A DNA stretch of 63,879 nucleotides, counting the filler, from Stramenopiles sp. TOSAG23-2 (lineage: Eukaryota): the NCBI GenBank assembly GCA_900128395.1. It is 3 parts of 3 records of this genome, joined end to end, with 100 filler letters (N's around TTAATTAATTAA, not from the genome) between each part and the next. Parts side by side here need not be neighbours in the genome. Positions count along the whole stretch, not along the records: positions 1 to 23,293 come from LT649491.1; 2 more parts are not named here. One strand, written 5' to 3'. Shown in pieces: positions 4,219 through 59,315 of this stretch. A program made the position numbers and the translations under genes. Under the pieces are notes generated by a model. That model saw only the letters and a program-made list of their open reading frames with translations, searched no databases and was not told the DNA's origin. Position 1 is the first letter of the stretch, and every line of letters starts with the position of its first letter.

Positions 4219-4468
4219 GACGGTGATTTTATACATATAAAGAATATTTTTTTTGATCAACAGAAAGTGAAATGACACAATGGTGAAGTTATATAATATA
4301 CATCTCCATTAATGAAATTAAGTAATCTGGTAATCCATCATCAGACGGTGATTTTATACATATAAAGAATATTTTTTTTGATCAACAGAAAGTGAAATGA
4401 CACAATGGTGAAGTTATATAATATACATCTCCATTAATGAAATTAAGTAATCTGGTAATCCATCATCA
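4219..4468. repeat. Perfect tandem duplication, 2 x 125 bp
   Basis: 4219-4343 equals 4344-4468 (GACGGTGATTTT...CCATCATCA). Confidence 0.9.
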
Positions 4469-4500: not shown

Positions 4501-4843
4501 TACATTTTCACCCTTTCCCATCCGATCATATTTACATGTTTTTTTTTATTTTTTAATTTAAATTATTATGTTTTTTTTATTTTCCCCTCAATATTGGTTG
4601 AAATCTCTGGTCTAAGTACGGAGTAGTTGTATACTAGAAATATTTACCTATATAATATGTTATTTATCAATATCGGCCAGAAAAGTCCTCTCTCAGATAC
4701 ATGGGGTCATATATATATCAATTTTTTATTAATCTCTGGTCTAAGTACGGAGTAGTTGTATACTAGAAATATTTACCTATATAATTTGTTATTTATCAAT
4801 TTAGGGCCAAAAAAGTCCTCTCTCAGATACACCGGGTCATATA
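4501..4843 (+). repeat. Dispersed repeat family A, with an internal ~112-bp diverged direct repeat (4602-4713, 4731-4843)
   Basis: Core AATCTCTGGTCTAAGTACGGAGTAGTTGTATACTAGAAATATTTAC occurs at 4602 and 4731 and, with one mismatch, at ~8976. The upstream TTCCCATCCGATCATATTTACA is also shared with ~8890. Confidence 0.85.
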
Positions 4844-8876: not shown

Positions 8877-9038
8877 ACATTTTCACACATTCCCATCCGA
8901 TCATATTTACACATGTTTTTTATTTATTTATTATTAATTTTGATGCATGTTTTTTTCCCTCAAATATTGGTTGAAATCTCTGGTCTAAGTATGGAGTAGT
9001 TGTATACTAGAAATATTTACAACCCTATATAATATGTT
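8877..9038 (+). repeat. Second locus of dispersed repeat family A
   Basis: Colinear similarity to 4501-4660. Bounded by a weak 12-bp AT-rich inverted repeat (TATTTGTACATT 8870 / AATGTACAAATA 9043). Confidence 0.8.
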
Positions 9039-13536: not shown

Positions 13537-14313
13537 ATGGCGTCCTTGTTGAAGAAAATTAGTAGTGTTGCGAACAATAAGAGCAATAACATTGACACAT
13601 GGGTAGATGATGAAGATGCAAATGCTTGTTCAGTATGTAAAAAACAGATTATAGCAGGATTTATTTCATCTAATAAACACCATTGTAGAACGTGTGGTCT
13701 AGTCGTATGTGGTAATTGCTCTGCAAAAAAAGTTCAAGGTAAAAGATGTTGCGATATTTGTTTTTGCCAACTAGAACGCAAAGATAAATGTGAAAAATTA
13801 TATATACCGTTGTTAAAAAAGGGGGCCATTTTTCAAAAATTTCCAGGCAGTTCCAATGCGCTTAATCTTGGTGGGGGGGGGATAAATCCTAGATTTATAT
13901 ATTTAAATAATGAAATGAATGCAATATGTTGGAGTTCACCTAGTAAACCATCGCAAGTGAAAGGGTCTATTATGATTATAGATATCACAGCTGTAACAAT
14001 GGGTTGTGAAACACAAGCGTTTATTAAAGCTCGTGTGCCAATGAATAGGGTAAATGGGTGCTTTTCAATTATTAGTAAAGCACGTACTTTAGATTTAGAA
14101 ACACCTTCGCAGGAAATTAGAAATCAGTGGGTTAAAGCAATTGGTGAATATACTAAAAAATTTAAAGCAAAAGGTCCTCATCAAAGATATATGGAAGTAC
14201 AAGGAAATATACAAAATCAATTAATGAAGAAAGAAGAAATGTTAGCGAGGCAACAACGTGAACAACGAGCTGAAGCAATTAGGGCTAAATATAACTTGCC
14301 AAAGGATTCATAA
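13537..14313 (+). CDS. FYVE zinc finger + PH-domain protein
   Basis: WVDD..CSVC..KHHCRTCGLVVCGNCS..RCCDIC, then PLC-type PH (LKKGAIFQKF, CFSIISKARTLDLE, NQWVKAI) and a coiled tail. Confidence 0.9.
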   Translation: MASLLKKISSVANNKSNNIDTWVDDEDANACSVCKKQIIAGFISSNKHHCRTCGLVVCGNCSAKKVQGKRCCDICFCQLERKDKCEKLYIPLLKKGAIFQKFPGSSNALNLGGGGINPRFIYLNNEMNAICWSSPSKPSQVKGSIMIIDITAVTMGCETQAFIKARVPMNRVNGCFSIISKARTLDLETPSQEIRNQWVKAIGEYTKKFKAKGPHQRYMEVQGNIQNQLMKKEEMLARQQREQRAEAIRAKYNLPKDS

Positions 14314-14704
14314 AAAAAATACGAAAAGTAGAGTGTACGTATACGAATTCGTATATACGAAAGTGCGCACGTATTGTGTATATTAAAATATTTTATAAAA
14401 TACGCATGATTTATTTTTTTTATTTCTAGCCGTGATTAATTCCTAAAATCTCTATTTAAATAAAAAGAATAAAAATGTAAAACTGAGAATTGAGAAAAGC
14501 AATAAATTAGTATTATGGATTGAGCATATATATCATTATAGTTTTTACTATAATATGCATACACGACTCACCAAATGCACAGTTTAAAGCAAAACGATTA
14601 TTATAAGCGCAAGTTTAATTATCGCGAGTTGTATATCTCTACATATAGTTGTGATAATTTAAAATGTGTGTGTCTGTATAACTCTTGGTAGAGGTCAGAC
14701 TCTT

Positions 14705-16261
14705 TTACAATCCTTTTGCTTTCTTTTTCGTTGGGCCTTTCGCTCTTGTGGCCTCAATATATTTTACTTCTCGTGGATCCATCAACCCAGTAAGCTGTAA
14801 TTTTCCATGTTTATCTACATCGTAACATAAATCTTGTGGTGAACTGCCGCCATAAATAGCAAATAATGCTGCCCATACAAATCCTAGTGAACCAAAAATA
14901 TAAAATACAGGCTCCCATCCCAAATAATGCTCAATAAGTGGTACACACATCATAGCAATGACAATCCCAGCATACACACCATTTTCTGTAATAGTTACTA
15001 ATATATCCTCCTCATCTCGTGGGAACCATTCACTAAATAAACTATAAACCGCTGGAAAATTTACACCCTCACCGGTACCCATTAAAAATCGTACTAAAAC
15101 TATTAACCATGGATGCACTGCACTGGGAGGTGTTAAAATGGTAAACAGTGACCACCATATAACGCCGAAAATCAAAACGTTCTTTGCACCCCATCTATCT
15201 GATAAATAACCACCAATTAGATGAGATGCCATTAAGCCTAGGAAAAACACACCGAAACAGATTCCTTCAAAGGATTTTGTCCATCCATATTTCTTTGCCA
15301 TTGGGATCATCGTTGCGCTTATATTGGCACGATCCATGTAGCAAATCAAATCAGCCATGCAACAAAATATCATAATATTCCATCGTCTAGGCCAATATTT
15401 AGCCCATATGGAATTTTTTTCAACGTTGTTAAAGTCTTTGGTATCTTGATCTAAATTATTATAATGATCCTCTACAACTTCTTGTGGAAAAATTGGTGTA
15501 AAGGAACTAAATCCCATATATGAAATAAATGATACGATATTAACACCTAAGGCGACAGCAAATGCATTTTCATAATGACCTCTACGCTTTACTAATGCAC
15601 CAGTTATAACCGACGATAAAAAACCAGCACCAGTCGCAAATTCATGTGTCAATGCCATGATTGAACCTGCATATTTTGCACCTATATCAATAACATTTAC
15701 AGCTACACCAGCTATGAAGCTTGCATTTAAAACGTACATAATATTTACAACCCAAAAAGCAACCCATGGTTTACCCACAGGTATTCGTGTCAAAGCTGCG
15801 AAACATCCAATATTTCCTGTATAACATATGCATGCAAGCGTTCTGCGTGTTCGTTTTAATGACCATCGAAAAGATGCGTTTTTTGTCCCAATTGGCTTGT
15901 AAAGGTTCCTATTTGGATCGTCCTCAGCTCCTGCATGCAACGTATTCTTTAATATACCAAAAAATATTACGAATGGTACAGTTAAACCAAAAGGTACAGC
16001 ACTCATGTATGCAGCTGTATGCTCTTTCATACCCATTTCGTGCAAATATGAAGGTAACCACGTAACTATCATAAAAAACGAGTAGTAAAAGCCAAATTTC
16101 GCGATACCCAACGCCCAGACAGGAGTACTTGTTAATATTTCTCCCCATGGTACATCCTCCGAAGGAGTCACTTTTTCTGGATCTATGGTTTTCTCCGAAT
16201 GCATTGGGTTTTGAATGCTTTTTTTATCTATTAAGGAATCATTCTCCTCTTCAGTGGACAT
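14705..16261 (-). CDS. MFS anion:cation symporter (SLC17/PHT4 family), N- and C-domains in permuted order
   Basis: Residues ~37-258 match SLC17 TM7-12 (VPWGEILTSTPVWAL, TWLPSYL, VNVIDIGAKYAG). Residues ~291-518 match TM1-6 (ICYMDRANIS, GGYLSDRWGAK, RFLMGTGEGVNFPA, GWEPVFYIFGSLG). Confidence 0.9.
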   Translation of the reverse strand: MSTEEENDSLIDKKSIQNPMHSEKTIDPEKVTPSEDVPWGEILTSTPVWALGIAKFGFYYSFFMIVTWLPSYLHEMGMKEHTAAYMSAVPFGLTVPFVIFFGILKNTLHAGAEDDPNRNLYKPIGTKNASFRWSLKRTRRTLACICYTGNIGCFAALTRIPVGKPWVAFWVVNIMYVLNASFIAGVAVNVIDIGAKYAGSIMALTHEFATGAGFLSSVITGALVKRRGHYENAFAVALGVNIVSFISYMGFSSFTPIFPQEVVEDHYNNLDQDTKDFNNVEKNSIWAKYWPRRWNIMIFCCMADLICYMDRANISATMIPMAKKYGWTKSFEGICFGVFFLGLMASHLIGGYLSDRWGAKNVLIFGVIWWSLFTILTPPSAVHPWLIVLVRFLMGTGEGVNFPAVYSLFSEWFPRDEEDILVTITENGVYAGIVIAMMCVPLIEHYLGWEPVFYIFGSLGFVWAALFAIYGGSSPQDLCYDVDKHGKLQLTGLMDPREVKYIEATRAKGPTKKKAKGL

Positions 16262-16820: not shown

Positions 16821-18338
16821 TTATACTCTATCTCTACCTCGTATAGCTCTTTCCCGTTCACTTAAAATGCCATTCTTAGCAATACCAATGGTTTTGCTTT
16901 TCTGTATCAATCGATTTCTTTCCTCAAGACGCTTTTCACTTAAATTATTGATTCGCTCTTCATACGACATTGCAGTCGTTCGATTTAATAAGCTTATATA
17001 TTCGCCACTACTTTCATGACCAGAAATATAATCTGACAATCGGGACTTTATAGGTTTTTTTGTAGAAATAAAATGATTCTCGTCATCATCATCATCATCA
17101 ACAACAAGAAGCTTATTATTGATTTTGGTATTCGTTGAAGAGGAAGTACTCTTGTTTACCGTTGTGCCTTCCTCGACAGCAACTTTACTAATACTTTTAT
17201 TGTACGATTTTTGTGCAACATTTATAAATTCTCGCATCATACAAGCTTTAACTGCATATTCATGCCATAAATCTTCATATCGTTTTAATAACCATTTCAT
17301 AGCATGTTCACTGGTATTAAATGACACTTCTTTATAATTAGTTTTATATAATACTAATGGACCTTCGTTTGACATGTTGTATTGTGGTCGCCTTGGGTGA
17401 TTTACAACATTTAATAATGTTGAAATTATCGGTGGATCTTCTTTACCACTTCCTACCAGAAATAAGACAGCTGTCATCATACGTACTTGATGCCATAAAA
17501 AGGCAGTACCTTCAATTTCAAACATATACATATCAGTGTCATTGATTCCATTCTCTTCATGACCAGTCGAACATTCATCTTCGTTGTTGCCATTAACTTT
17601 ACAGATATCAAATCTAAATATTTTACGTTTATAATTGCTAACGGCGATAACATTCATTTTACAAAAGTTACGAAAGTCATGCTCACCAATAAATAATTTA
17701 GCAGCAAGACGCATATCATTAATATTCATTTGACGTTTTGGAAAATAATATCTATATATGCGTGATAATGGGCTGAAACGTGCACTGAAATGAGCTGGAA
17801 TATCTGACCAAGCCAATATTTTTATATCGGTTGGTAAAAGCCTATTTATCATGTTTACATAATCTAACTCTTCGTGATGTGGTAATAAAGAATTGTTATT
17901 ATTATTGTTGCTATCATTATTGTTGTTGCTGTTATTATTATTGTTGCTGTTCTTTTCATTCGGATTATCATTGATTGATGAAGCAAGTTGTTTCGAACGT
18001 AAATAAATTGATATAACTTGCCCAACTGCACTTACTCCAGCATCTGTTCGGCCACTTAGTGAATACGAAGACGATTTCCTATCTACAATTAAACAAGTCT
18101 TTTTCAATGCCTCAAATAAATAATGCTCAATAGTTTCTGTAGTATCCGCTTGAGATGCATATCCACGATATTTATGTCCAAAATATGCAACATGCAGGGC
18201 GACATATCGTTTTTTATATTTCGTCACATCAAATTGTCTTCGTGTCTTTTTTTTCTTTTGCCTTTTCCGTGGTTTTCCATTATTACCATTATTCTTTCCG
18301 TTGGCATTATTGTAATTATTATTTGATGATCGCTTCAT
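16821..18338 (-). CDS. PUS3: tRNA pseudouridine(38/39) synthase (TruA family, PUS3/DEG1)
   Basis: RYVALHVAYFG, GRTDAGVSA (catalytic Asp), FSARFS, GEHDFRNFCK and GTAFLWHQVR. Confidence 0.93.
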   Translation of the reverse strand: MKRSSNNNYNNANGKNNGNNGKPRKRQKKKKTRRQFDVTKYKKRYVALHVAYFGHKYRGYASQADTTETIEHYLFEALKKTCLIVDRKSSSYSLSGRTDAGVSAVGQVISIYLRSKQLASSINDNPNEKNSNNNNNSNNNNDSNNNNNNSLLPHHEELDYVNMINRLLPTDIKILAWSDIPAHFSARFSPLSRIYRYYFPKRQMNINDMRLAAKLFIGEHDFRNFCKMNVIAVSNYKRKIFRFDICKVNGNNEDECSTGHEENGINDTDMYMFEIEGTAFLWHQVRMMTAVLFLVGSGKEDPPIISTLLNVVNHPRRPQYNMSNEGPLVLYKTNYKEVSFNTSEHAMKWLLKRYEDLWHEYAVKACMMREFINVAQKSYNKSISKVAVEEGTTVNKSTSSSTNTKINNKLLVVDDDDDDENHFISTKKPIKSRLSDYISGHESSGEYISLLNRTTAMSYEERINNLSEKRLEERNRLIQKSKTIGIAKNGILSERERAIRGRDRV

Positions 18339-20061: not shown

Positions 20062-21063
20062 ATGACATCATTGAATCTTTTGTCGCGCCCACGGCGAAAC
20101 CGGGTAAATGACGCAATACGTAAATTTCATAGTGAAACATGGTTAGGTCCACAACACTTTGTATTGCCATTATTTATTCATGATTCGGAGGAAAATGTTC
20201 CTATATTATCGATGCCTGGATGCTCCCGTTTAAGTTTAAAAGGTATGATGGACGAGGTACGTGGAGCTGTAGAGGATGGAATCACTTCTATTGAATTATT
20301 TCCAGCTATTGCAGAAGAATTAAAAACTGCCGATGGCAAAGAATGTTATAATTCAAATGGTTTAGTTCCAACTGCAATAAAAATGTTGAAAAAGGAGTTT
20401 CCAAATATAGTGATCGTGACAGATGTAGCTTTAGACCCATATTCATCTGATGGTCATGATGGTATCGTTGATGCTACTTCAGGTAAAATTTTAAATGATG
20501 AAAGTGTCGCCGTCCTGTGCAAACAAGCCCTTTGTCATGCCAGGGCTGGTGCGGACATAATTGCGCCGAGCGATATGATGGATGGCCGTGTCGGTGCAAT
20601 ACGAAAAGCATTGGATAGTGAAAATTTCAAAGACATATTGATTTTATCTTATACCGCTAAATATGCATCTTCATTTTATGGACCATTTCGGGAAGCATTG
20701 GATTCAGCGCCTAAATTTGGTGATAAGAAAACATATCAAATGGATCCAGGGAATGCACGTGAAGCAATTCGGGAATTACAATGTGATGAGAGTGAAGGTG
20801 CTGATATATGTATGGTGAAACCAGCAATGCCATATTTAGATATTTTGCAACGACTTCGGCAAAATACGACATTGCCATTAGCTGCATATCAAGTAAGTGG
20901 TGAATATGCAATGTTAAAAGCTGCATCTCAAAATGGATGGCTAGAAGAAAAAAAAGTTGTAATGGAATCATTATTGTCCATACGACGCGCAGGAGCAGAT
21001 ATAATTTTTACATATTTCGCGAGACAAGCTGCAAGATGGTTAAAAGAAGACAAAATGTTTTAA
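20062..21063 (+). CDS. hemB: Delta-aminolevulinic acid dehydratase (porphobilinogen synthase), Asp-type (Zn-independent)
   Basis: RPRRNR, DVALDPYSSDGHDG, APSDMMDGRVGAIR, KYASSFYGPFREA, MVKPAMPYLD and AYQVSGEY. Confidence 0.97.
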   Translation: MTSLNLLSRPRRNRVNDAIRKFHSETWLGPQHFVLPLFIHDSEENVPILSMPGCSRLSLKGMMDEVRGAVEDGITSIELFPAIAEELKTADGKECYNSNGLVPTAIKMLKKEFPNIVIVTDVALDPYSSDGHDGIVDATSGKILNDESVAVLCKQALCHARAGADIIAPSDMMDGRVGAIRKALDSENFKDILILSYTAKYASSFYGPFREALDSAPKFGDKKTYQMDPGNAREAIRELQCDESEGADICMVKPAMPYLDILQRLRQNTTLPLAAYQVSGEYAMLKAASQNGWLEEKKVVMESLLSIRRAGADIIFTYFARQAARWLKEDKMF

Positions 21064-23293: not shown

Positions 23294-23393
23294 NNNNNNN
23301 NNNNNNNNNNNNNNNNNNNNNNNNNNNNNNNNNNNNNTTAATTAATTAANNNNNNNNNNNNNNNNNNNNNNNNNNNNNNNNNNNNNNNNNNNN
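23294..23393. other. Artificial contig linker (44 N + TTAATTAATTAA + 44 N)
   Basis: Exactly 100 nt with a six-frame stop cassette; same structure at 46625-46724. Confidence 0.95.
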
Positions 23394-38149: not shown

Positions 38150-38274
38150 TAGTCTGCGTCGTCAGACTCTTTCTTATATATACCTTTTAATTAAGCTAAT
38201 AAAAGAGTCTGACGACGCAGACTAAATTTTTATTTTCTAGAAAATTTTTTTATGATTTGTGTAATTTTATTATA
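38150..38274. repeat. Repeat family B: 23-bp perfect inverted repeat plus ~90-bp segment duplicated at 41523-41612
   Basis: TAGTCTGCGTCGTCAGACTCTTT (38150-38172) / AAAGAGTCTGACGACGCAGACTA (38202-38224). A two-mismatch copy of one arm lies at 21315-21337. Confidence 0.85.
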
Positions 38275-38865
38275 TTATACAAATATCAAACCTCTAAACA
38301 ACAACTAAAACAACCGAAGGGGATAGCAGCACTTCTTACCGCCGCCTTCGGCGTCGATAAGAAGATGCTTCCTTAAAACTGTATATGTATATGTTTATGT
38401 ATTAACATGTACTAATATATTGATATATATATTTTTAGCAAATATTCTGATCTAGAATATTCGAAATGCTGCTACCGCCCCTCTTTTTTTAAGTGTAGTA
38501 AAGAAAACTTTGCCCTGTAATGCTATTGCATACTAACGATATAGGTCCGAAAATTAAAAAGATAGAAAGTGAGTTGAAGAGGCCTTTGTATTTGGGAAGG
38601 GGTTGTTTATAAAAAAATTCCTCTTGTTTGATGTACATTACACCATTACATGAAAAATGCTTAATATTTTTCCGTAAATTGATTTTATAATATTTTTTAT
38701 TCATATAATTACTTCGTACGTTCGTACTAATTTATCACCATATCACTATGTGCAATTCGTGGATTCCTTCTTCAAAGTGCCAAAATATACTTTGGTATTT
38801 CTTTTTTTGATAACAATTTTATCTTGTAGATGTAGTACCTGTAAATCAATACTCGCGCGCAAAAG

Positions 38866-41522: not shown

Positions 41523-41612
41523 TTTTAATTAAGCTAATAAAAGAGTCTGACGACGCAGACTAAATTTTTATTTTCTAGAAAATTTTTTTATGATTTGTGT
41601 AATTTTATTATA
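41523..41612 (+). repeat. Repeat family B, second copy
   Basis: TTTTAATTAAGCTAATAAAAGAGTCTGACGACGCAGACTAAATTTTT...GTAATTTTATTATA, essentially identical to 38185-38274. Confidence 0.9.
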
Positions 41613-41640
41613 ATTTACATTCAGGAGTGTGCTGGTGTGC

Positions 41641-46624: not shown

Positions 46625-46724
46625 NNNNNNNNNNNNNNNNNNNNNNNNNNNNNNNNNNNNNNNNNNNNTTAATTAATTAANNNNNNNNNNNNNNNNNNNN
46701 NNNNNNNNNNNNNNNNNNNNNNNN
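46625..46724. other. Artificial contig linker (44 N + TTAATTAATTAA + 44 N)
   Basis: Same structure as 23294-23393. Confidence 0.95.
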
Positions 46725-58736: not shown

Positions 58737-59315
58737 TCAATCCACCACAATCGCCACACCATCCACACTCCTTGTCTGCAATTCATACGTTTTCAATAAT
58801 TTACCCTTCTCCTCCTTTCTTTTCCTTCCTGTTGAGGACTTCATATTACAACAATAACATATTGCACCACCAATACAACAGACAGAAATCAATATGATTA
58901 TACCACCAATCAATAACATCATCATTTGCTCCTCCATCTCCTTCTTCCTCTTCTCCTCACCATCCTCATTGTCAGACAATGATGGCCCNNNNNNNNNNNN
59001 NNNNNNNNNNNNNNNNNNNNNNNNNNNNNNNNNNNNNNNNNNNNNNNNNNNNNNNNNNNNNNNNNNNNNNNNNNNNNNNNNNNNNNNNNNNNNNNNNNNN
59101 NNNNNNNNNNNNNNNNNNNNNNNNNNNCTACGACGACGACGCATACGTTTTTCATCATCACATCTAACATCATCACCTGGACAGTCATAAATAGCTATAA
59201 TACTAACTGTATTTGCTGGAACATTAATAGCTGCTGCAATATTTCCCGCAATAGCATTTTTCATCGTTGATGTACTTAATTCTGCTGCTGTTACATCTTC
59301 TGATGTTGATGATAA
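58737..59315 (-). CDS. In-frame continuation of the transglutaminase ORF: juxtamembrane domain, TM helix, cytosolic tail (contains N gap 58989-59127)
   Basis: Same frame directly after the TAA: LSSTSEDVTAAELSTSTMKNAIAGNIAAAINVP...RRRR[gap]...LLIGGIIILISVCCIGGAICYCC. Frame across the gap is uncertain. Confidence 0.65.
   Translation of the reverse strand, partial: LSSTSEDVTAAELSTSTMKNAIAGNIAAAINVPANTVSIIAIYDCPGDDVRCDDEKRMRRRRXXXXXXXXXXXXXXXXXXXXXXXXXXXXXXXXXXXXXXXXXXXXXXXGPSLSDNEDGEEKRKKEMEEQMMMLLIGGIIILISVCCIGGAICYCCNMKSSTGRKRKEEKGKLLKTYELQTRSVDGVAIVVD

Follow-up and report, generated by a model that had tools for sequence, protein, structure and literature searches.

Must the two six-helix bundles of a transporter from the major facilitator superfamily (MFS) be encoded in a fixed order? 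No superfamily of secondary transporters is larger than the MFS, whose proteins are described as consisting of an N-domain with a C-domain after it. The question is raised by a gene of Stramenopiles sp. TOSAG23-2 (assembly GCA_900128395.1), which occupies positions 14705-16261 on the minus strand of a stretch of 63,879 nucleotides; this whole analysed stretch is referred to as the window. An initial annotation of the locus had described one uninterrupted open reading frame (ORF) of 518 amino acids, in which the C-domain of an SLC17-like transporter precedes its N-domain. The frame is present as described. It is a single 518-residue ORF followed by a stop codon (14705-14707), it contains no intron, and it is closed in frame 9 bases 5´ of the ATG; residue n begins at nucleotide 16261-3(n-1) of the minus strand. 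This intact single gene encodes helices similar to transmembrane helices (TM) 7-12 ahead of helices similar to TM1-6 of an MFS transporter of the SLC17/ACS (anion:cation symporter) type. The canonical MFS order of N-domain before C-domain is not found in it.

The exchange is apparent from alignments to canonical proteins. The best sequence matches in the Protein Data Bank (PDB), obtained with phmmer, were VGLUT2 (8sbe, E 8.6e-35) and sialin (9ayb, E 8.8e-35), and both were matched crosswise. Residues 320-476 of the query correspond to sialin 104-261 and residues 32-252 to sialin 283-486; for VGLUT2, residues 317-475 correspond to 72-231 and residues 37-274 to 264-491. These are the crossed hits that the initial annotation had predicted for the two halves aligned separately to sialin and VGLUT. 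BLASTP gave the same picture for P0015, a canonical ACS relative of 428 amino acids (query 288-477 to 12-202, 45% identity, E 1e-52; query 21-255 to 209-424, 25% identity, E 4e-15), and for DgoT of Escherichia coli (query 287-516 to 8-226, E 3e-18; query 53-156 to 247-381, E 6e-5). Residues 12-202 and 209-424 of P0015 are each represented by one copy in the window protein. Further, the Pfam profile MFS_1 (PF07690) matches the protein with 130.7 bits (gathering cut-off 33.4, E 7.6e-38) in two stretches, and the stronger of them, residues 305-470, corresponds to profile positions 6-171 of 347, i.e. the start of the profile falls on the second half of the protein. No significant colinear sequence alignment to sialin, VGLUT2, P0015 or DgoT was obtained. 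When three canonical proteins were compared with the whole window by tblastn, significant matches appeared at this gene only and were crossed every time, and no other remnant of an MFS half was detected in the window below E 0.1.

The protein can thus be divided into two bundles and a connection between them (all features of the gene are on the minus strand). The first six-helix bundle (residues 37-255, 15497-16153) is homologous to the canonical C-domain with TM7-12 and aligns with sialin 283-486 and P0015 209-424. The second bundle (residues 288-477, 14831-15400) is homologous to the canonical N-domain with TM1-6, as judged from the N-domains of P0015, VGLUT2, sialin and DgoT. Between them, a hydrophilic linker of about 32 amino acids, previously estimated at about 30, leads from the old C-terminus at the end of TM12 to the old N-terminus before TM1 (residues 256-287, 15401-15496; modelled with low predicted local distance difference test score, pLDDT). 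It stands in for only residues 425-428 and 1-11 of P0015. The motifs listed in the initial annotation all occupy the residues given there: VPWGEILTSTPVWA (37-50), WLPSYL (68-73), VNVIDIGAKYAG (188-199) and FSS (251-253) in the first half, PRRW (291-294), YMDRANIS (308-315), GGYLSDRWGAK (350-360), RFLMGTGEGVNFPA (391-404) and GWEPVFYIFGSLG (448-460) in the second, and ENDSLI (6-11) close to the N-terminus.

In the simplest alternative, the unusual order would be an artefact: a misjoin of two canonical genes in tandem, or of a collapsed duplication, would have fused the C-domain of one to the N-domain of the next. The window does consist of joined pieces (runs of N around TTAATTAATTAA at 23294-23393 and 46625-46724, and a plain run of N at 58989-59128), and the related metagenome contig L003 is a clear inverted chimera of the same gene. 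The gene itself, however, lies inside one gap-free piece and its junction contains neither a stop codon nor a change of frame. The stretch was present in 20 of 24 listed sequencing runs (13 studies; seven RNA libraries, two possible sources of the window). Four runs were examined in detail; the data are contigs in all cases, which show presence and continuity and not transcript ends, strand or level. The linker is bridged by an independent DNA contig (X3 record 29, 15018-16159) and by RNA contigs of two studies (X11 record 5, 14587-15572; X19 record 20, 14798-15642), which provide the continuity of DNA and RNA across the junction that the initial annotation had called for. RNA contig cover stops above about 16302 and below about 14587. 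The full gene recurs in the metagenome contig L001, its amino-acid sequence being 99.6% identical, and the order is common to seven divergent homologues. Splicing to additional halves, resulting in a tandem of 24 helices, had also been considered beforehand. No splice joints were found in any of the four runs, and the flanks of the gene, about 390 nt and about 560 nt long, contain no MFS-like frame; they are delimited by a plus-strand gene for a FYVE/PH protein ending at 14313 on the downstream side and by a minus-strand pseudouridine synthase gene ending at 16821 on the other. Given all this, an artefact of joining is hardly credible. We therefore annotate the whole ORF as a permuted MFS transporter gene, on account of the reading frame, the Pfam match and the lack of joints in four runs. 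The gene occurs in polyA metatranscriptome libraries of several studies and we read it as expressed.

Two items of the contig data were set aside. In run X14, two RNA contigs (14650-15392 and 15373-15860) meet at the linker edge, and neither has 31 letters on both sides, so this run was not counted as bridging evidence. L003 (1-1059) was considered as a rearranged locus and rejected: it consists of sequence from one gene of a close relative, the reverse-complemented 3´ part (residues 396-518, 90% identity) being joined to the 5´ untranslated region and the initial 186 codons, and its 5´ untranslated region is identical to that of L005, whose upstream region is normal. L003 is probably an inverted assembly or cDNA chimera.

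Is the permuted order confined to one gene? The two halves were scored separately against 267 proteins. The order of C-like before N-like half was found in 10 of them, the canonical order in 176, one half only in 75 and repeated or tandem halves in six. The 10 permuted proteins are the window protein, two near-identical ones and seven independent homologues of 44-70% identity (P0004, P0005, P0006, P0007, P0008, P0009 and P0010), so that the search for the same order in other proteins, suggested at the outset, was successful. The 13 top family matches (P0002-P0014) are all derived from metagenomes, none from NCBI or UniRef. At the level of loci, L002 carries an uninterrupted permuted ORF of 536 amino acids. 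In L004 and L006 the C-like half comes first in the gene, which a few hundred bases separate from a gene for a ribosomal protein transcribed divergently, and no N-domain is present upstream of it in either. GC content ranges from 0.34 to 0.48 among the loci and their introns vary too, so that the family comes from several genomes. The linker varies as well, from 32 amino acids in the window protein up to about 110 in relatives. Two of the three subclades (P0006-P0012) have a longer linker with an invariant CCCCC after a conserved TP.F.R motif; CCCCC is absent from the window protein. Such a run of cysteines could be a site of palmitoylation, i.e. of lipid anchoring.

Both halves are under purifying selection. 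As counted in seven full-length members from three subclades, the C-like half has 86 invariant columns out of 219 and the N-like half 123 out of 190 (209 of 409 together), compared with two of 32 in the linker and one of 77 in the two tails (the start methionine among 36 N-terminal columns, none of 41 C-terminal ones). In comparison with the closer relative L003, the proportions of nonsynonymous and synonymous differences (pN/pS) are 0.119/0.819 for residues 1-195 and 0.048/0.871 for residues 396-518; synonymous sites are saturated here, and the ratio is about 0.06-0.15.

These values bear on the possibility that the gene is a pseudogene, a decaying and functionless remnant of a tandem duplication which is still open by chance. 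Such an interpretation might appeal to the long stem branch of the C-like half described below, and to an insertion of about 20 amino acids that is found only in the source organism. It lies in the loop between the TM8-like and TM9-like helices (residues 110-134, 15860-15934), corresponds to a gap in every other member of family alignment A1, and is predicted to be disordered (pLDDT below 50 at 111-131). The loop is cytosolic, however, and a decaying gene would not be expected to combine a low pN/pS at saturated synonymous sites with more than half of its core columns invariant in seven proteins of three subclades, with invariant catalytic and coupling residues, and with a presence in polyA metatranscriptome contigs of several studies. 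We regard a pseudogene as very improbable.

Maximum-likelihood trees were built separately for each half, as had been recommended, by a quick IQ-TREE search with support from the Shimodaira-Hasegawa-like approximate likelihood ratio test (SH-aLRT) only. The permuted proteins are monophyletic in both. In the N-like tree (71 rows, 10 permuted) their clade has SH-aLRT support of 100 and a stem of 1.29; in the C-like tree (52 rows, nine permuted, after 15 near-identical canonical rows were dropped) the support is again 100 and the stem 2.11 changes per column. The same three subclades are recovered in both trees. By sequence as well as by phylogeny, the closest relatives of both halves are ACS/SLC17 proteins, with P0124 as the top-scoring canonical protein for either half. 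Inside ACS/SLC17, no firm sister relation of the permuted clade was recovered (supports 81-89). Our conclusion is a single origin from one ancestral gene with faster change afterwards, above all in the C-like half.

What would such a protein look like? AlphaFold models were made of the window protein (20 alignment rows, mean pLDDT 76.2, predicted TM score (pTM) 0.76) and of P0007 from another subclade (12 rows, mean pLDDT 70.4, pTM 0.67). In both, twelve long helices fall into two sets of six while tails and linker are disordered, and so the structure prediction that had been proposed returned a complete 12-helix MFS fold. In the first bundle, the model helices span residues 46-75, 89-109, 135-157, 165-223 and 231-251. 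Compared with whole solved MFS chains, the window model gives Z 34-39 and a root-mean-square deviation (rmsd) of 3.0-3.9 Å over 348-384 residues (about residues 40-480 of the model), with Z 34.3 and rmsd 3.4 Å over 375 residues for the DgoT structure; the P0007 model reaches Z 41.1 and rmsd 2.6 Å over 360 residues. These structural alignments are colinear, at 10-14% identity. A colinear full-length alignment had been named beforehand as an argument against the exchange. It does not exist by sequence and it does exist by structure, where it follows from the pseudo-symmetry of MFS halves. Because the two bundles are related by a pseudo-twofold axis, structural comparison is blind to the swap; as a test of permutation the structure search was uninformative, the permutation being readable from sequence only.

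The same pseudo-symmetry can account for the feasibility of the exchange. TM6 is the counterpart of TM12 and TM7 that of TM1, and the linker from TM12 to TM1 takes the place of the loop from TM6 to TM7. Because of this axis, the swap would keep both the topology, with both ends cytosolic, and a fold like that of a normal MFS protein. Both termini are predicted to be cytosolic, and the charge distribution agrees with it: 22 lysines and arginines lie in loops and tails of the presumed cytosolic side and six on the other (helix boundaries were taken from the model, and helix 165-223 was split by hand at 192/195). Since the two halves are not connected in the canonical way, a domain-swapped dimer might form instead, in which a C-like half pairs with the N-like half of a second chain. 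The linker would nevertheless be long enough for pairing within one chain, even at its 32 residues here and more so at about 110 in relatives. Further, the connection from TM12 to TM1 is equivalent by pseudo-symmetry to the canonical loop from TM6 to TM7, and the monomer models have a compact MFS fold. A swapped dimer is accordingly improbable, and we prefer pairing of the two halves within one chain.

Residues expected of a transporter of this type are retained. D310-R311 in the TM1-like helix (15329-15334) and E398 align with D31-R32 and E118 of the annotated 430-residue DgoT, which become D46, R47 and E133 by a constant offset of +15 to the published numbering. In DgoT, H+-coupled galactonate transport is lost with either substitution, D46N or E133Q, and Arg47 contacts the carboxylate of the substrate (PMC6532931). 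R391 and E398 in the TM4-like helix (R391...E398, 15068-15091) align with R184 and E191 of VGLUT2, the residues mutated in structure entry 7t3n as far as its title indicates. D310, R311, R391 and E398 are invariant in family alignment A2. The polar pocket of TM1 Asp-Arg and TM4 Arg...Glu that is characteristic of ACS/SLC17 is thus present. So is the C-domain signature N..DI..KYAG: VNVIDIGAKYAG (15665-15700) is by its alignment columns the counterpart of the SLC17 signature that reads VNHLDIAPRYA in VGLUT2 and INHLDIAPSYAG in sialin, and its N189, D192, I193, A195, K196, Y197, A198 and G199 are invariant in A2. MFS motif A has the consensus G-x-x-x-D-[RK]-x-G-x-[RK] and lies between TM2 and TM3. 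It is represented here by GGYLSDRWGAK between the TM2-like and TM3-like helices (residues 350-360, 15182-15214), where G350, G351, Y352, L353, D355, G358, A359 and K360 are invariant in all seven sequences. PMC4889909 quotes this consensus in part.

We suggest that the protein is likely to be a functional anion transporter which would work by rocker-switch alternating access, as its conserved residues indicate. Coupling to H+, as in DgoT and sialin, would have at least even chances and perhaps slightly better ones, to judge from the same residues. As to its place in the cell, ENDSLI (residues 6-11, 16229-16246), which had been noticed as an acidic dileucine-like signal, conforms to the pattern [DE]xxxL[LI] and is a candidate endolysosomal or vacuolar sorting signal. 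The strict pattern occurs in six of nine N-termini of the family, and its frequency in shuffled sequences is at most 0.049 per tail. PMC8946281 describes it as a sorting signal for adaptor complexes that is located at the N-termini of transporters of lysosomes and vacuoles, MFS proteins among them. From the recurrent motif alone, a location in the endolysosomal or vacuolar membrane might be as easily right as wrong.

Taken together, we consider it very probable that the locus is a real and expressed gene without introns, whose product is a 12-helix MFS transporter from the ACS/SLC17 lineage with its bundles encoded in reverse order. The proposed exchange of halves is borne out by the crossed alignments, the homologues of the same order, the contigs bridging the junction, the tight flanks and the models with a full MFS fold; twelve helices in two six-helix bundles are present in the predicted models. 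Several observations weigh on the other side. Firstly, TIGR00894 is the best NCBIfam model for the permuted and the canonical ACS/PHT4-type proteins alike, and the window protein (E 5e-43) reaches 147 bits in three stretches against a curated cut-off of 626, so that a continuous match above cut-off to an ACS/SLC17 profile (TC 2.A.1.14; TIGR00894, TIGR00893) was not obtained. The canonical controls P0124 (243.6 bits) and P0015 (305 bits) are also below this cut-off, but they match in one stretch. Secondly, the C-like half sits on its long stem (2.11) and is only 25% identical to canonical C-domains, and its function may have shifted. Thirdly, the shallow alignments of 20 and 12 rows, together with AlphaFold's knowledge of the MFS fold, make the models weak evidence for pairing within one molecule. 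The contigs do not give transcript ends, strand or level, as said, and RNA libraries may carry DNA. Three of the nine family N-termini are without the strict dileucine motif. Finally, none of 3384 candidates for a longer, fused relative gave a score, and no form of 18 or 24 helices was found near the permuted clade, which is weak evidence.

How might such a gene arise? In the model we propose, the ancestral termini would have been joined by the variable cytosolic linker, and a cut in the ancestral central loop would have provided new termini. A gene duplicated in tandem, fused in frame and then deprived of its outer halves could take on this arrangement, and the terminal motifs make this origin a probable one. 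A relic of the canonical C-terminus, FASGEKQFD-stop, is kept at one edge of the linker as FSSFT in the window protein and as FGSAEDQF or FGSADPQF in other subclades. At the other edge, YWPRRW corresponds to canonical EYWPRRY of the N-terminus. The central loop is divided between the two new tails at almost no cost, since the aligned parts of P0015 end at 202 and resume at 209. The new N-terminal cytosolic tail (residues 1-36, 16154-16261) would stem from the second part of the loop; it is poorly conserved, its residues 21-36 already align with P0015 from 209 onward, and the N-terminus starts just before the PW..IL..PVWA segment that precedes TM7. The new C-terminal cytosolic tail (residues 478-518, 14708-14830) comprises the first part of the loop, with the E..YI segment kept after TM6, and a basic end. 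Its EVKYIE aligns with ELDYIR of DgoT, and the pattern E..YI recurs in alignment A1 though none of the 41 tail columns is invariant. Duplication, fusion and trimming would leave such a pattern, and the relics therefore agree with that origin.

The fusion step has a possible trace in relatives. In L004 (3853-4141), a GTAAGT donor follows ...GAA CCA CAA T, so that an intron of phase 1 interrupts the codon for Phe in the relic PQF motif at the linker boundary, one or two codons before the canonical stop. The same donor is read through in P0123, and in P0011 and P0012 the reading enters from an acceptor at that position. The window gene and L002 have no intron at this position. The position of the intron fits a fusion by splicing across a former intergenic region, although it is no proof of it. 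The L004 intron is filled with a microsatellite of the GTGTGGATGT type. Products of the kind needed for the duplication model occur or are predicted elsewhere in the family: P0126 (1029 aa), P0178 (880 aa), P0225 (968 aa), P0190 and P0198 contain either two full N-C units one after the other, with about 24 helices, or additional N-halves. They may be genuine fusions, or gene models in which tandem genes were merged.

An ancestral gene might alternatively have split into half-genes of six helices each, N6 and C6, which were later fused again in opposite order, or the exchange might have come about by exon shuffling. The two halves of LacY, when separately expressed, assemble into an active permease, which makes a stage of separate polypeptides conceivable, and the lack of 18- or 24-helix intermediates near the clade would be readily understood, the tandem proteins P0126, P0178 and P0225 being distant from it. 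Against this route stand the relics of both ancestral ends flanking the linker and the almost complete retention of central-loop residues at the cut, a pattern that duplication and trimming predict, and a representative search found no stand-alone family of half-genes beyond exon fragments of intron-containing members. We thus hold an origin from half-genes or exons to be possible but rather unlikely, and keep to duplication, fusion and trimming.

In which respects does the protein differ from known systems? With sialin (SLC17A5) and VGLUT1-3 it shares the 12-helix fold, the TM4 Arg/Glu pair, the N..DIA..YAG signature and the PW..IL.S.PVWA segment before TM7. An endomembrane location such as that of sialin is plausible for it too; sialin is listed among lysosomal transporters studied by mutation of sorting motifs (PMC8946281). 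In contrast to these proteins, its bundles are reversed, its central loop is cut, the termini are joined, and the C-like half retains only about 25% identity. Position 322 in TM7 of VGLUT2 aligns with F58 of the window protein, with an invariant K55 one turn earlier; R322 of VGLUT2 presumably matters for glutamate. DgoT, the D-galactonate:H+ symporter of E. coli and the bacterial ACS model of SLC17, has its D46, R47 and E133 kept as D310, R311 and E398, whereas its order is canonical, identity in the N-like half is 26%, and the C-like half of the window protein matches in TM7-9 only. The closest canonical sequences are ACS/PHT4-type proteins (P0015, P0016, P0124 and the plant proteins P0017, P0018 and P0020), whose terminal motifs are kept at the linker edges; they give one continuous match to TIGR00894, whereas permuted proteins give two to three stretches. 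The tandem 24-helix proteins P0126, P0178 and P0225 illustrate that fusions of the type N-C-N-C, which duplication would require as an intermediate, exist or are predicted in the family, but they keep all four halves and are distant from the permuted clade (half-scores of 13-82 bits).

Rearrangement of MFS units has been proposed before. The 3-helix "mix-and-match" rearrangement of Madej, Kaback and co-workers was disputed by Vastermark and Saier (PMC4889909). That proposal concerns an ancient reordering of 3-helix units inferred where clear sequence homology is lacking, whereas here a swap of six-helix units is visible in significant alignments within one family. The initial annotation was aware of no natural SLC17 permutant in earlier descriptions; in our search of full-text literature, with subscription journals mostly outside its coverage, no natural permutant of the MFS or of SLC17 turned up either. 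To our knowledge, an ordinary fold with probably ordinary chemistry is combined here with an architecture undescribed for the superfamily. Our overall proposal, on balance somewhat favoured, would be the first documented natural circular permutation in the MFS, in a small, monophyletic and lineage-restricted family of marine protists whose C-domain is made and inserted first, and which may have arisen when a tandem pair was fused by intergenic splicing.

If our assumptions are true, co-translational folding does not constrain the order of MFS bundles, and rearrangement of six-helix units is a real evolutionary route. The order in which the bundles are synthesized and inserted into the membrane would then not be essential for folding or alternating access, and the family would serve as a control provided by nature for what the central loop and the termini do in gating and regulation. 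It is also relevant to the dispute over rearranged MFS structural units (PMC4889909); here, a rearrangement is directly legible in significant alignments. There are two practical consequences. Firstly, annotation pipelines will under-call or mis-model permuted proteins, because their profile matches are fragmentary and far below curated cut-offs. Secondly, a family from abundant marine eukaryotes can serve as a marker in comparative genomics of their lineages. The source genome itself looks compact, AT-rich (GC 0.33) and apparently intron-poor, and it is widespread in marine metagenomes and metatranscriptomes.

Some further observations concern the rest of the window. The six-frame stop linker TTAATTAATTAA and the runs of N mean that the order and orientation of the window across these points are no evidence of linkage. 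Just downstream of the stop codon of the permuted gene, contig depth is very high over a segment of about 80 nt (14563-14644) in each of the four runs examined; binned means reach about 3500 for the DNA run and 100-160 for the RNA runs, and the contig flanks diverge at 14616 and 14642-14650. The segment gave no tRNA and no Rfam match at E up to 0.1, and it is single-copy within the window. It could represent a dispersed repeat, or else some short element common to other organisms. For the delta-aminolevulinate dehydratase gene at 20062-21063 (plus strand), the best named relatives, about 66-72% identical, come from metagenome-assembled genomes of Myxococcota, Planctomycetota and Bradymonadia and not from eukaryotes; the enzyme may be bacterial-type or transferred. 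Repeats are present as well. An intergenic repeat at 4219-4468 is an exact tandem duplication of 125 nt, an intergenic repeat of 83 nt has copies at 4602 and 4731 (in the region 4602-4813) and at 8975, and a 97-nt repeat, likewise intergenic, occurs at 38185-38281 and again, 3.3 kb apart and with 98% identity, at 41523-41619.

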